The notes beneath the pieces are model-generated. The model had not been told where the DNA came from. It was given only the letters and a program-made list of their open reading frames with translations, and searched no databases. The position numbers and the translations under genes are program-made. A DNA stretch of 64,000 nt from a virus. The stretch is from positions 3,998 to 67,997 of IMG/VR virus record IMGVR_UViG_3300035698_003924; one strand, 5' to 3'. Below, piece by piece: positions 56,103-60,399 of this stretch (positions within the stretch are counted from its first letter, which is position 1; every line of letters begins with the position of its first letter).

Positions 56103-56894
56103 ATGTCGAGAAACCTGAGATTCACCAAATCGTATTGGACACCGGCCTACGAGGGCGAGCCCGCCCCGGTCACTCCCGCACCGGTCACCCCGGCACCACC
56201 CGCGCCGGGTACAACGCCCGCACCGCCGAAGCCTGACGCTGAGGCGCAACGGCAGTTGGAACAGTATAAAAAGACCACCGCAACATTGGCCGCAGAGATC
56301 GAAATGCTGAAGAAGCGCGCCGACCTCACAGCGGGCGAGAAGTCTGAGATGGAACAGCGTCTGGAAGCTGCACAGAATCAGTTGCTCACCAAGGAAGAAC
56401 TCGCAGCCCAGGCCAACAAGAAACTGACTACCGAGCATGCAGCGACTATTGAGGCGCTTACAGGCGAGCGCAACAACTGGCAGTCCCGTTACACAGACTC
56501 AATGATTATTAGAACCATCAAGGACGCGGCAGCGGCGAATGAGGCTTTCGAAGCCGACCATATCGTCGCAATATTGCGTTCCAATACCAAGCTCGTTGAG
56601 AAGAAGGATGAGGAAGGCAACAGTTTGGGGTTTGAGCCCCGCACACAATTCGATACAGTAACAGCCGAGGGTAAGCCAGTTACGCTCGACCTAACCGTAA
56701 ACGAGGCTGTCGTGAAGATGAAGGAACTCCCGAAGCACCAGAACCTGTTCAAGGGCGAAGGTGTCAGTGGTATGGGAGCGAACTCGCGACCCGCAGGCAG
56801 CCCCGTTGACCTAGTAGCAGCCGCCAGACTCAGCCCCGAAGCCTATCGTAAGGCACGGGCCGTTTCCGAGCTGGCCAACGCACCCAAGAAATAG
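56103..56894 (+). CDS. Capsid scaffolding protein
   Basis: Pro-rich N-terminus, coiled coil, NLFKGEGVSGMG; AGGAG RBS before 56103; precedes the capsid gene. Confidence 0.75.
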   Translation: MSRNLRFTKSYWTPAYEGEPAPVTPAPVTPAPPAPGTTPAPPKPDAEAQRQLEQYKKTTATLAAEIEMLKKRADLTAGEKSEMEQRLEAAQNQLLTKEELAAQANKKLTTEHAATIEALTGERNNWQSRYTDSMIIRTIKDAAAANEAFEADHIVAILRSNTKLVEKKDEEGNSLGFEPRTQFDTVTAEGKPVTLDLTVNEAVVKMKELPKHQNLFKGEGVSGMGANSRPAGSPVDLVAAARLSPEAYRKARAVSELANAPKK

Positions 56895-56904
56895 GAGTAC
56901 GACC

Positions 56905-58290
56905 ATGAGGTACCGATTTGTTCCCAGCTTGTTCACCCCGGCCCACGCCAACAGCCTGGAAGCGTTCATTCCGGAAGTTTGGGCGCAGGAGTCCCTGCTT
57001 GTCCTTGAGGAGAATATGGTTATCTCCAACTTGGTCAATAAGGATTTCTCGAGCGAGGTTGCCGCGTTTGGCGATACCGTCAACACCCGCAGTATCGCTG
57101 AGTTCGAGATGGCCCGCAAGACGGACGCGGACGAAGTGACCACGCAGAACGCCGAGGCCACCAACATCCCCGTTGTTCTGAATCAGCACAACTACTCCAG
57201 CTTCATCATCAAGGATGGTGAGGAGTCCAAGGGTTTCCAGAACCTTCGCGAGAAGTATCTGGTCCCGGCGGTTCGCTCAATCGCCCGTGGTATGGATCAG
57301 TTGCTGTTGGCTCAGGTCTATCAGTTCAAGGCCAACAACGCCGGCTCGCTCGGCACCGCGGCCTCCAGAGGCTCAGTCCTGTTGACTCGCGAAGTCATGA
57401 ACATCAACAAGGCGCCGCTGGAAAACCGTAACTTCATCATCACCCCCGGTGTCGAGACAAACCTGCTCGACACCACGCAGTTCATCGACGCCAACACGCG
57501 TGGCGATGATGGTTCGGCGATGCGTGAAGCCAACATCGGGCGTCTGCTCGGCTTTGACTTCTACATGGCCCAGAACTGTCCCGCGATTGCGGACGGTAAC
57601 ACCGTTCACACCGCTGCGGTGAATCTGATCGCCGGTTATGCGGCCGATTCGACGTCCATCGCCATCGACGGTACCAGCGAAGACTTGGTCGCGGGTTCCT
57701 GGTGCACGATTGGCGGCGACATGATTCCGCAGAAGATCACCACCGTCACTGGCTCGCCCACGACGCTGCTCACCATTAGCCCTGGCCTGAAGCGCGCCGT
57801 GGTCAATGATGCAGTCGTCACGGTGTACGCTCCGGGCGCCGTGGATCTGCTCGCGGGCTACGCGGCCAACTGGTCCAAGCCCATCGTGGTGGACGGCTTC
57901 TCCGTCGCCCCGAAGGCTGGTCAGCTCGTTAGTTTCGATGCTGGTGCCTCGAAGGACGTGTACGGTACCATCGGTACCCCGACCACGACCAGCATCTTGC
58001 TGGATCGTCCGTTGGTGGTCGCCGAAGCGAACGACGACGTTGTCGGTATCGGGCCGGCTGGCGATTACTGTTTCGCCTTCCACCCGAATGCCATGACGTT
58101 GGTGTCTCGTCCGTTGGCGGCCCCTGCCCCCGGTACGGGCGCGGCCTCCTTCGTCGCAGACGCGAACGGTCTCGGCATCCGAGTCACGATCACGTACCAG
58201 GGCTACAAGCAGGGTCACCTCGTTACGGTGGACATGCTGTGTGGTGTCAAGGTGCTGGATACGTCTCTCGGCGCTGTCATGTTCGCCTAG
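56905..58290 (+). CDS. Major capsid protein (P22 coat-like, HK97 fold) with insertion domains
   Basis: FIPEVWA, GDTVN, GRLLGFDFYMAQN, AFHPNAMTLVSRPL, DMLCGVKVLD. Confidence 0.9.
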   Translation: MRYRFVPSLFTPAHANSLEAFIPEVWAQESLLVLEENMVISNLVNKDFSSEVAAFGDTVNTRSIAEFEMARKTDADEVTTQNAEATNIPVVLNQHNYSSFIIKDGEESKGFQNLREKYLVPAVRSIARGMDQLLLAQVYQFKANNAGSLGTAASRGSVLLTREVMNINKAPLENRNFIITPGVETNLLDTTQFIDANTRGDDGSAMREANIGRLLGFDFYMAQNCPAIADGNTVHTAAVNLIAGYAADSTSIAIDGTSEDLVAGSWCTIGGDMIPQKITTVTGSPTTLLTISPGLKRAVVNDAVVTVYAPGAVDLLAGYAANWSKPIVVDGFSVAPKAGQLVSFDAGASKDVYGTIGTPTTTSILLDRPLVVAEANDDVVGIGPAGDYCFAFHPNAMTLVSRPLAAPAPGTGAASFVADANGLGIRVTITYQGYKQGHLVTVDMLCGVKVLDTSLGAVMFA

Positions 58291-58310
58291 TCCGCTCAGG
58301 AGTGGGATCA

Positions 58311-58332
58311 GGGAGGGGTGCAAACCCCTCCC
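58311..58332 (+). terminator. Hairpin after capsid gene
   Basis: gggaggggt-gcaa-acccctccc. Confidence 0.6.
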
Positions 58333-58348
58333 ACTCCCAAACTATCTT

Positions 58349-58525: not shown

Positions 58526-58981
58526 ATGGACATTACGCCAGAGGTACCTGCTGCAAGTGACTGGGATAGATATGCTATGTTTGTCACCCAGGCGATTCAA
58601 GAACACACAGCAGGGATTGCATCGGTTTGGCAAACCATGGACAGCAATGCTCGTAGCGCAGAAGCACAGTTGGCAAAGGTTTCAAACAGCGGTCAGGCTG
58701 CATTGTTTCAGCATCAGCAGGACGAAGCAAAGATGTGCAGGGGATGCCATGAGCGTTTGGCCGGTTTGGAGAATCAAGTTGGCACAAACTCAGAGAGTAT
58801 CGCCAACTCGTTCAGCGCCGCTGGTAAGTCGGACTTCAGGCTGTGGAGTCTCGCGAAAGACTTAATCATCTTGATCCTGGCCGCGTCTGTTTGGCTGTAC
58901 TCCACACAGCATACATCCACCGTACCCACTAAGTCGGCGCCTAAGAAAGTTGAGATCCAACGTGGTAATTACAAACCATAG
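58526..58981 (+). CDS. Coiled-coil protein with one C-terminal TM helix (holin-like candidate)
   Basis: LIILILAASVWLY; GGAGG RBS. Confidence 0.45.
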   Translation: MDITPEVPAASDWDRYAMFVTQAIQEHTAGIASVWQTMDSNARSAEAQLAKVSNSGQAALFQHQQDEAKMCRGCHERLAGLENQVGTNSESIANSFSAAGKSDFRLWSLAKDLIILILAASVWLYSTQHTSTVPTKSAPKKVEIQRGNYKP

Positions 58982-59387
58982 TCAAGTCAAGCGCATCTTG
59001 TATCAGCTCAAGAAGATTTTTGGAACCTCGATTGTCTTGAGAGAAAAGACTGCCACGACAAACTATGCCACGGGCGCGATAACCAACTCTGTAGATACGC
59101 TCACAGTCAAGAAGGCTATACTGCTGCCCCGTAGGATGCAGCGGCAGTTTGACTATGACCTGTCTTTCATTGCAGCCAACAAGAATTTCACATATGGCGG
59201 GCTGTATGATTCAAATACCCGGTGGCTCATAATTGATGAGCGTGACGTTACGGGTGCTTTTGATATCACCCTCAACTATGAATGCGATGCTAATGGTCTC
59301 AGGTACGACGTCGCTGAGGTCAACTATGACGATTACTCAAAGGTGTACTACCTACGTATGATTAATACCGCGAATCTCACCGCATAG
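58962..59387 (+). CDS. Head closure / head-tail joining protein
   Basis: Position, size and beta-rich sequence; probable GTG start. Confidence 0.55.
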   Translation: MVITNHSQVKRILYQLKKIFGTSIVLREKTATTNYATGAITNSVDTLTVKKAILLPRRMQRQFDYDLSFIAANKNFTYGGLYDSNTRWLIIDERDVTGAFDITLNYECDANGLRYDVAEVNYDDYSKVYYLRMINTANLTA

Positions 59388-59395
59388 GAGTAGAC

Positions 59396-59872
59396 ATGCC
59401 TATAAATGCGAACTGGTCCCGATGGATTTTCGCATCAGTCATACAGCACTTCGACGCCCGCAAGGCTGACTTGTTCCTGTATGTGGAAGGCGAACACAGG
59501 GAGACAGAGGGCAAGCCCAACGTGATGGAACTGCGTATGGACGGCCCCTACACTACAGAAGTAAGCAAGAATTACTTTCGTGTATTTATCGAAGTCAACG
59601 TACTTATTCAGACAGCCGTGCTAAATGTGGATTTATACCAACACAGGACGAACATAGGTGCAGCTGAAGCAGCGTTCACAAACTCAATTTTACTATACAA
59701 GTTGGGCGGCCTAGCTGGTGATACTGGCGATCTGGTTGGGTGCCTACGGTTAGAATCAGATTGGCGTGGTAGGGAAAGAGTACAGACCAGCGACTTTGGT
59801 CTTGTGCGCCCGAATACGCCTGTGCTACAAGCGACCATCGAAGGTCACTACGAGATTTTCCTGGAGGTCTAA
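59396..59872 (+). CDS. Tail terminator-like protein
   Basis: Immediately upstream of the tail tube gene; 158 aa. Confidence 0.55.
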   Translation: MPINANWSRWIFASVIQHFDARKADLFLYVEGEHRETEGKPNVMELRMDGPYTTEVSKNYFRVFIEVNVLIQTAVLNVDLYQHRTNIGAAEAAFTNSILLYKLGGLAGDTGDLVGCLRLESDWRGRERVQTSDFGLVRPNTPVLQATIEGHYEIFLEV

Positions 59873-59874
59873 TC

Positions 59875-60399
59875 ATGAGATTTGTTCCCAGTTTGTTCAC
59901 CCCGGCCCATGCCAGAATCGATATGAAGGATGTTATCTTCAAGATCAAGGATGGCACCGGCTCACCTAATGAGCTGCAGATCAAGATTGCCGAGGGCAAC
60001 TTCGTCTACTCCGAACGTCGGGAGATTGAGTATTACCCTGACCGCGGTAATCTGGATGACGTCAACGAGGGCGATCAGGTCCCGATGGAAGTCCGTTTCG
60101 AGTTTGAGTGGTCGTATATCCGCTCGACCTCCACCGGCTCCACCCCGACGGTCGAAGATGCCCTGAAGCAGCGCGGTGGTGCAGCCGATTGGATTTCGTC
60201 TGACACCGACCTGTGTCGTCCGTACGCCGTGGACCTGGAGCTGGTTCACACGCCGGATTGCGTCACAGGTGACGTTGAGACTCTCACATTCGCAGACTTC
60301 CGTTTCGAGTCGCTGGAACATGACCCGCGTACAGGTCAGATTTCCTGTACCGGCAAGTGCAACGCCATCGAGCCGACGTCCGTGAGAACCTCCCAGTAA
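59875..60399 (+). CDS. Tail tube (major tail) protein
   Basis: Acidic beta-rich 174 aa, GGAGG RBS, followed by chaperone and tape measure. Confidence 0.75.
   Translation: MRFVPSLFTPAHARIDMKDVIFKIKDGTGSPNELQIKIAEGNFVYSERREIEYYPDRGNLDDVNEGDQVPMEVRFEFEWSYIRSTSTGSTPTVEDALKQRGGAADWISSDTDLCRPYAVDLELVHTPDCVTGDVETLTFADFRFESLEHDPRTGQISCTGKCNAIEPTSVRTSQ

Follow-up and report, generated by a model that had tools for sequence, protein, structure and literature searches.

What is the role of a short peptide that stands at the N-terminus of the scaffold, the major capsid protein and the probable tail tube protein of one and the same phage? The question is raised by the virus record IMGVR_UViG_3300035698_003924, a phage record of 67,997 bp with 127-bp terminal repeats, of which 64 kb (positions 3,998 to 67,997) were analyzed; this whole stretch is called the window below. 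The peptide, a leader of 12-16 residues that ends in TPAH or TPAY on all three proteins, is almost certainly a real functional module, and its sequence differs between phages and agrees among the virion proteins of any one of them. A first-pass annotation of the window had noticed the shared leader and had proposed a processing or targeting system covering both head and tail. The evidence gathered here suggests that the leader is a removable tag, with a stand-alone cysteine peptidase of the phage itself as the candidate enzyme.

The leader of scaffold, capsid and tube

The late genes of the phage are arranged in the order terminase large subunit (52258-53943), portal (53943-55646), head-tail adaptor (55649-56092), scaffold (56103-56894), P22-type major capsid protein (56905-58290), a small membrane protein, two head-tail proteins and a 174-residue protein (59875-60399), followed by two small open reading frames (ORFs), a 203-residue protein and the tape measure, which begins at 61702. 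The three leader-bearing genes and their leaders are listed below, with an arrow marking the predicted junction between leader and mature protein.

56103..56894, plus strand: head scaffolding protein, 263 amino acids from the ATG at 56103 (phrog_206, E 6.9e-13; directly 5' of the capsid gene)
56103..56150, plus strand: scaffold leader, 16 residues, MSRNLRFTKSYWTPAY↓EGE, predicted junction Y16↓E17 (N-terminal motif; AGGAG 8 nucleotides 5' of the ATG)
56905..58290, plus strand: major capsid protein, P22-type coat fold family (PF11651, E 1.2e-21, 77.5 bits against a cut-off of 24; phrog_283, E 3e-64)
56905..56946, plus strand: capsid leader, 14 residues from the ATG at 56905, MRYRFVPSLFTPAH↓ANS, predicted junction H14↓A15 (N-terminal motif; leaderless orthologues aligned to A15)
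59875..60399, plus strand: probable tail tube protein, 174 amino acids (gene order, between the head-tail genes and the chaperone/tape-measure genes; ESM Atlas look-alikes)
59875..59910, plus strand: tube leader, 12 residues from the ATG at 59875, MRFVPSLFTPAH↓ARI, predicted junction H12↓A13 (N-terminal motif; leaderless orthologues aligned to A13)

The tube assignment draws on gene order and on look-alikes in the ESM Atlas, where the protein scores 0.96 by features to Phi812_tail_tube clusters and its predicted structure reaches a TM of 0.70 to a Phage_tube_2 cluster. Sequence searches of Pfam, PHROG and PDB with this ORF gave no match, and the identity is therefore probable rather than proven.

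In this phage, the leaders follow the motif RF..S.[FW]TPA[HY]. Its core, [FWY]TPA[HY], occurs four times in the six frames of the window, and three of these occurrences are the N-termini of scaffold, capsid and tube; the fourth (12464, minus strand) is not a gene, because it lies five codons before a stop in a stop-to-stop frame of 35 codons. A strong ribosome-binding site, AGGAG or GGAGG, precedes each of the three ATGs by 7-8 nucleotides. Since the residue following the junction is Ala or Glu and not Met, the leader must be translated. Capsid profile matches start past the leader (phrog_283 at residue 15, PF11651 at residue 22), and the Atlas structural matches to the tube begin at residue 12. 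At the nucleotide level, recomputation reproduced the earlier observation that capsid (56915-56950) and tube (59879-59914) leaders are identical at 34 of 36 positions, both differences (AGC/AGT and CAC/CAT) being synonymous. This identity ends sharply at both leader edges. Between scaffold and capsid leaders, just 17 of 36 nucleotides are identical.

The leader as a trait of the capsid family

Homologues of the capsid protein number 1158 at E<=1e-10 and are nearly all metagenomic; in the phage collection searched, no cultured phage exceeds 32% capsid identity. The junction pattern fits 114 of the 120 best homologues, where it precedes a very conserved mature N-terminus, ANDLDAFIPEVWAQE, so that the leader is plainly conserved in relatives, and 88 of these 114 have leaders of 12-15 residues. 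Among 111 scored capsids, the last leader residue (P1) is F in 47, Y in 42 and G in 5, and the first residue beyond the junction (P1') is A in 80 and D or E in 21; farther upstream, V stands at P2 in 69 capsids (87 when A is counted with it), W at P5 in 76 and K at P7 in 53. The family consensus reads M-x(3-6)-K-[IV]-W-x-[PT]-V-[FY], followed by A, D or E, i.e., a basic stretch and then an aromatic-hydrophobic core, with a positive net charge in 94 of 110 capsid leaders. Some lineages have leaders ending WFG, WYG, PAG or TVG, and those of two prophages (L091 and L093) are of the type LYLSxPxxAC[FY]E.

Leaderless forms are found at two distances. Four of the 120 best homologues start M-A-N-D exactly at the junction (P0004, P0005 and P0058 with MANDL..., P0113 with MANDF...), all of them aligned to A15, and a pattern scan for leaderless capsids (MANDLDAF...) found only two viral contigs, of 4 and 22 kb. 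More distant capsid relatives, at no more than 36% identity and from prophages of Firmicutes and Actinobacteria, start M[AP]NT[IF]LTP and have no leader. Among tubes, the leader is present in 43 of 65 scored and absent in 22; tubes without it have MAQIDLK, MAAIDLK or MARIELR at the N-terminus, an M followed by the P1' residue, and MAQIDLK aligns to A13-R-I-D-M-K of the present tube. Leaderless capsids and tubes thus have their MAND... or MAQID... right where the leader ends in the other orthologues, which makes removal at [F/Y/H]↓[A/D/E] likely, and we think it probable that the leader is cut off.

Matching of leaders within a genome

The N-termini of capsid, scaffold and tube were read side by side in 84 viral-contig loci and 60 genome-contig loci. 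For capsid and tube, 2.82 of the last 7 leader residues are identical within a genome, compared with 1.45 +/- 0.15 after shuffling (maximum 1.98 in 2000 shuffles), as calculated over 45 distinct pairs with leaderless or misaligned pairs kept in. Scaffold leaders of relatives likewise resemble those of their own capsid and are followed by a linker that is acidic or rich in Gly; of 63 distinct scaffold N-termini, 55 share at least 3 of 7 residues with the leader of the capsid from the same phage. For example, the capsid, tube and scaffold of single genomes carry the sets KIWQTVY/RVWHTVY/RVWYNVY, RRWFG/REWFG/RGWYG, GWSTVG/SWSTVG/GWCSVG and TWVTTF/AWISTF/PWITTF, ADARPIAH is found on both the capsid and scaffold of one relative, and YPTTY on the capsid and tube of another.

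This agreement is seen in the peptide far more than in the codons. At identical leader residues, the same codon is used in 48 of 104 cases for capsid-tube (38.6 expected), 93 of 207 for capsid-scaffold (84.4 expected) and 36 of 89 for tube-scaffold (34.6 expected). Codon agreement is thus barely above expectation, and it is the peptide, not the DNA, that is under selection. The near-identical DNA of the capsid and tube leaders in the window is an exception among relatives and may stem from recent conversion.

Gain, loss and spread to other virion proteins

Mapped onto a tree of 77 capsid sequences, the tube leader must have been gained or lost at least 14 times, and two loci (L041 and L033) encode the same tube, one with and one without the leader. 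In another locus, L204, the scaffold has kept its leader and both capsid and tube are leaderless. Spread to further proteins was scored with a position-specific scoring matrix built from 110 capsid leaders, using as controls 295 N-termini of terminase, adaptor and three other module proteins. Among N-termini of relatives and the window, 9 of 47 distinct portal proteins and 4 of 40 tape measures outscore every one of the 295 controls; by a stricter criterion for the portal, at least 4 of 6 residues identical to the capsid leader, just 2 of 41 qualify. The clearest case is a viral contig of 21.9 kb (L022) in which all five proteins carry the leader: scaffold HPWYAVF↓EGEG, capsid KVWLTVF↓DND, portal MRIWKSIF↓AG, tube RPWISVF↓AQ and tape measure MKIWKSVF↓GV. 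The corresponding features of the window are the following.

53943..55646, plus strand: portal protein, without leader in this phage (phrog_145, E 9.7e-31)
61702..61737, plus strand: possible weak fourth leader, on the tape measure, (M)ADNNVVWTAQY↓DQ (matrix score 8.8 against a control maximum of 7.0; GTG start)

The tape measure of the window is one of the four that outscore all controls, but its leader is uncertain, because a relative with 87% identity (L001) does not show it.

A C39-like peptidase encoded by the phage

As the first-pass annotation had stated, the head module contains no recognizable prohead protease: Pfam and PHROG scans of approximately 70 window ORFs, many of them small and without a family, found none of the prohead-protease types S78, S77, ClpP or S49, in the head module or elsewhere, and no other protease family either. 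A candidate emerged from a comparison of nine large genomes of the lineage, in which one gene stood among the few conserved ORFs of unknown function.

32923..33408, plus strand: C39-like papain-fold cysteine peptidase, 161 amino acids, candidate leader peptidase, with C14, H118 and D129 (alignment, AlphaFold2 (AF2) model, Foldseek, VIA-align)

The protein has a Cys near its N-terminus and H...YD(P)xG near its C-terminus, both invariant. C14, H118 and D129 are invariant in 8 aligned sequences and kept in 19 sequences as well as in the divergent copy of genome G019. An AF2 model from the 8-sequence alignment reached a predicted local distance difference test score (pLDDT) of 81. With Foldseek, it matched papain-fold enzymes, including the peptidase domain of PCAT1 (E 4.6e-4, probability 1.0), and with VIA-align, the top ranks were C39 leader peptidases, namely PCAT1 (8vp5; Z 11.7, root-mean-square deviation (rmsd) 2.8 Å over 125 residues), LahT150 (6mpz; Z 11.7) and ComA (3k8u; Z 11.5), the C39 set as a whole giving rmsd values of 2.5-2.8 Å over 121-125 residues. 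Staphopains ranked lower (Z about 10), as did Josephin-type enzymes (Z about 9).

The gene was found in 18 of 29 records searched, including all five viral records bounded by direct terminal repeats, and in all nine large genomes once a 19-sequence hidden Markov model (HMM) had added the divergent copy of G019. It is present in four of five Planctomycetota genomes with related prophages; in three of these, and on a phage-like contig of the metagenome-assembled genome (MAG) G027, it lies on the same contig and strand as the capsid gene, 35-44 kb 3' of it. In the present phage, it lies 43.9 kb downstream of the capsid gene round the circle, and in G003 it is on a contig other than that of the capsid. 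All five genomes whose distant capsid relatives are leaderless lack it. The first-pass annotation had suggested testing a C39-like peptidase, and this protein has become the best lead, being a core gene with a fold at Z 11.5-11.7 to C39 peptidases.

Leader and peptidase also diverge together. In pairwise comparisons among 19 genomes, the more the peptidases of two genomes differ, the more their leaders differ too (r 0.51-0.62, as high in none of 5000 permutations); the correlation of leader dissimilarity with mature capsid distance is lower (r 0.27-0.33). Given the capsid, the partial correlation of leader with peptidase is 0.42-0.59 (n=19), and the reverse partial correlation is approximately 0. 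Nine structural proteins used as controls gave r 0.27-0.52, versus 0.57-0.77 for the peptidase on the same genomes.

Hosts and the search for Prp

The only host evidence for the lineage comes from prophages with this capsid family in MAGs of Planctomycetota (L088, L089, L091 and L093, with remnants L109 and L113), assigned to Pirellulales, Thermoguttaceae and Planctomycetaceae, on contigs of 137-698 kb plus one chromosome of 6.6 Mb. Leader-bearing prophages lie on contigs of 137-698 kb in four of the five Planctomycetota genomes examined, and the fifth, G005, gave only a partial capsid match (query residues 3-109). The contigs binned as Rhodoferax, Saccharibacteria, Cloacimonadota and Dehalococcoidales are small and resemble contigs of phages.

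A search for Prp (PF04327), the host protease that processes virion proteins of phage 80alpha, gave no match in the phage, in viral records of 20 relatives plus 3 MAGs, or in the five Planctomycetota genomes; in three control genomes, the same search detected Prp above the cut-off. A check of ribosomal proteins for an N-terminal extension, as had been suggested earlier, was likewise negative for L27, which in all five Planctomycetota genomes is unextended and begins directly with MAHKKGQGSS. A search of the five genomes for host mimicry, made with one narrow degenerate pattern of the Thermoguttaceae-type leader, returned only prophage copies and one chance match in a non-gene frame, and by its narrowness leaves room for a host substrate.

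A proposed role for leader and peptidase

The scaffold, capsid and tube would be made as precursors, each with a short basic-aromatic N-terminal leader. This leader would serve as a portable tag that scaffold and capsid carry in all or nearly all cases, the tube often, and portal and tape measure sometimes. It would be recognized by one trans-acting factor, the phage's own stand-alone C39-like cysteine peptidase, whose predicted cut separates the leader from the conserved mature N-terminus (capsid H14↓A15, tube H12↓A13, scaffold Y16↓E17). By analogy with what is thought of the Prp-cut leaders of 80alpha, the tag would probably prevent early subunit assembly or order the assembly steps. We give roughly even chances to the C39-like peptidase (32923-33408) being the enzyme that does the cutting. 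A more far-reaching proposal, which we regard as possible though rather doubtful, is a private "address-and-release" code of this large uncultured lineage of tailed phages, Planctomycetota prophages included, in which all the major self-assembling virion proteins (scaffold, capsid, portal, tail tube and tape measure) bear a hypervariable leader of some 13 residues that is read by a co-evolving C39-type peptidase, such that each phage matures only its own parts.

A number of observations weigh against assigning the cutting to this peptidase. The gene lies in a replication block and not among the late genes, directly downstream of a gene for an NYN-domain protein (PF01936, E 1.1e-23), which it abuts (32438-33408, the stop of one gene overlapping the start of the other) and with which it stays together in related genomes. 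This neighbor tracks leader divergence equally well (r 0.61, versus 0.62 for the peptidase; n=13), and the signal therefore belongs to the neighborhood and not demonstrably to the peptidase; in addition, Mantel and partial Mantel tests are prone to false positives and overstate significance on related sequences. The protein has no Pfam match, C39 included (at E<=0.01; at E<=5 for 8 members, one unrelated match), and no sequence match in PDB, and its membership of C39 is based on fold and catalytic residues. Its fold also resembles deubiquitinase-like enzymes, as the Josephin score indicates, so that another role, such as counter-defense, may be entertained. C39 enzymes cut after Gly-Gly (or Gly-Ala/Ser), and the leader junction is mostly V-F or V-Y, with Gly at P1 in 5 of 111. 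The MAGs G026 and G028 have leader-bearing contigs and gave no peptidase match, and the 8-row peptidase model misses the divergent G019 copy that the 19-sequence HMM finds. The leaderless contigs (the two with MANDLDAF..., L004, L025, L038 and L059) are all fragments, estimated to be 11-23% complete, and the absence of the peptidase from them is uninformative. Finally, cleavage itself is deduced from sequence comparison in a lineage whose cultured relatives lie at or below 32% capsid identity.

Alternative explanations

A host protease might remove the leader, as Prp does in 80alpha, with the leader mimicking the N-terminal extension of a host protein and the phage peptidase having another job. 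According to PMC5744158, host Prp removes 13-14 residues at F↓A from both the capsid and scaffold proteins of 80alpha, and the major tail protein of phi13 also carries the Prp motif; the L27 motif of the Prp system is treated in PMC9405229. The likeness to this system includes a leader of about 13 residues common to non-homologous virion proteins of one phage, an aromatic↓small (here mostly aromatic↓Ala) junction, a head module without a prohead protease, and the coverage of capsid, scaffold and a major tail protein alike. The position of the phage peptidase gene outside the late module would also fit a host enzyme. There are differences, though: the motif is LNLQ(F/H)F↓A in the Prp system, as against K[IV]Wx[PT]V[FY]↓A or TPAH↓A in these phages, the present lineage is unrelated (P22-type coat), and its leader is strongly variable between phages. 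The failure to find Prp in the phage or its candidate hosts, the unextended L27, and the narrow leader pattern that matched only prophage copies and a chance site speak against an enzyme of the Prp type; the likely enzyme here belongs to another clan and is encoded by the phage. Moreover, the leader shifts quickly between close phages yet stays matched inside each, which fits a phage-borne partner better. We therefore consider removal by a host protease unlikely. The precedent of phi13 bears on the first-pass annotation in another way: its core reading, a leader-processing system analogous to that of 80alpha, is supported and would be much more general than supposed, extending to hundreds of relatives and in some to portal and tape measure, but the coverage of head plus tail is not without parallel.

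It is somewhat more conceivable, though still improbable in our estimate, that the leader is retained and works as a tag, by bringing in a shared chaperone, guiding the proteins to a site of assembly or letting identical tags pair in co-assembly, with the peptidase being unrelated to it. The basic stretch and aromatic-hydrophobic core of the leader would suit such a role, since they presumably resemble chaperone-binding motifs, and cleavage of the leader is itself deduced indirectly. The scaffold of L204, which keeps its leader next to a capsid and tube that have lost theirs, can be read in the same way, and in 80alpha, the scaffold leader is needed for assembly and its cleavage is not (PMC5744158). 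Retention is harder to reconcile with the sharp, conserved boundary, given that leaderless orthologues begin with M plus P1' and, after loss of the initiator Met, would have the same mature N-terminus as would arise by cleavage. Covariation within a genome would also be unnecessary for a generic chaperone tag, and an enzyme of leader-peptidase type is a core gene of the lineage. A related suggestion of the first-pass annotation, that the leader is a tag for modifying enzymes, is disfavored because, of 8 genomes compared, only 2-5 have the glycosyltransferase and radical-SAM genes, whereas the leader is kept. Least probable by far is a feature of the DNA, whether a recent gene conversion or a translational or regulatory element shared by the 5' ends of highly expressed late genes. 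The sharply bounded match between the capsid and tube leaders of the window would favor it, as would the few relatives that share codons (L029, 4/4; L080, 3/3). Over the 45 distinct pairs, however, codon identity is near expectation, the peptide is shared without its codons in L068 (0/4), L057 (0/3) and L054 (0/3), the scaffold leader DNA of the window has diverged to 17/36, and leaderless orthologues lack the element altogether. The translational control element proposed earlier thus loses its footing on the codon counts.

Comparison with other leader peptidases and maturation proteases

Removal by the phage-encoded peptidase, the reading preferred here, can be set beside several known systems. 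Members of the C39 family remove short N-terminal leaders from the substrates of bacteriocin and peptide exporters, and PCAT1, the peptidase domain (PEP) of ComA, and LahT150 are the closest structural matches to the 161-residue protein, in which Cys, His and Asp are conserved. The phage protein differs in standing alone, with no fusion to an ATP-binding cassette (ABC) transporter, in having no sequence-profile match to C39, and in its predicted substrates, which are large virion proteins with a junction that is mostly V-[FY]↓A and not G-G↓. Prohead proteases of the HK97 gp4 and T4 gp21 types are phage-encoded and trim N-terminal parts of several head proteins during maturation, in T4 with the aid of a capsid targeting sequence. 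They are serine proteases, encoded in the head module, and act inside the prohead; to our knowledge, they do not process tail tube or tape measure proteins. The present system would resemble them in that a phage-encoded enzyme trims the N-termini of several virion proteins, and differs in that no such family was found here. Finally, adenain and the core-protein cysteine proteases of poxviruses and African swine fever virus trim several virion precursors at a short shared motif, with Gly-Gly or Ala-Gly sites. These are enzymes of eukaryotic viruses and of another protease clan (CE), and they recognize sites rather than a portable N-terminal leader.

Other genes of the late region

The 203-residue protein 5' of the tape measure (p203, 61098-61709) was considered as a retropepsin-like protease on account of its D-T-G(-M-S) motif, which, along with G111, F136 and Q142, is invariant in 28 homologues. 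This candidate was rejected: the DTG is present in the fully leaderless L004, homologues in Planctomycetota prophages read IPVWSGA in its place yet keep their leaders, and the Atlas look-alikes are YomN-like tail-module proteins. A single-sequence AF2 model had a pLDDT of 31, and the matches from a profile search of PDB were limited to weak ones with histones. The protein probably belongs to the tail module.

A 151-residue ORF (58526-58981) between the capsid gene and the head-tail genes has a hydrophobic C-terminal stretch and a CxxCH-like motif, CRGCH, with faint cytochrome-c matches in Pfam (E 0.05-0.1). By BLAST, it is common to only three loci, the window included, and relatives have other small membrane ORFs in its place. 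Two loci carry further ORFs 5' of the terminase gene. In L204 (1754-2587, reverse-complement locus coordinates), this is a 277-residue ORF that begins much like a signal peptide and contains HLTAAH, a motif that recalls trypsin-like serine proteases, and in L006 (398-763), a 121-residue ORF with CCDKHD, a phospholipase-A2-like motif. The tubes of L053, L062, L074-L076, L084, L086 and L088-L093 are 250-370 residues long, with a large insertion after the conserved N-terminal IDLK...DG segment, which may be a surface decoration domain.

Significance

Two routes to the proteolytic maturation of tailed phages are known, one through serine proteases of the head module and the other, in a single case, through a borrowed host enzyme, Prp; the lineage described here would represent a third solution. 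A search of the openly accessible literature found no description of this leader system. If the proposed role is correct, the peptidase would be without precedent among phage maturation proteases, both in being of the bacteriocin-leader-peptidase type and in serving head and tail alike, and its confirmation would add a new class of protease to those of virion maturation. It would also account for the extra N-terminal residues with which annotation pipelines record these capsids and tubes, and would allow the question raised by 80alpha, namely what purpose such leaders serve, to be tested in a second, independent system. The lineage would offer natural, matched pairs of leader and peptidase which, differing in specificity, could serve as orthogonal cleavable tags. 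For the phages themselves, the leader code would be a possible barrier to, or currency of, the exchange of modules between those that co-infect a host.

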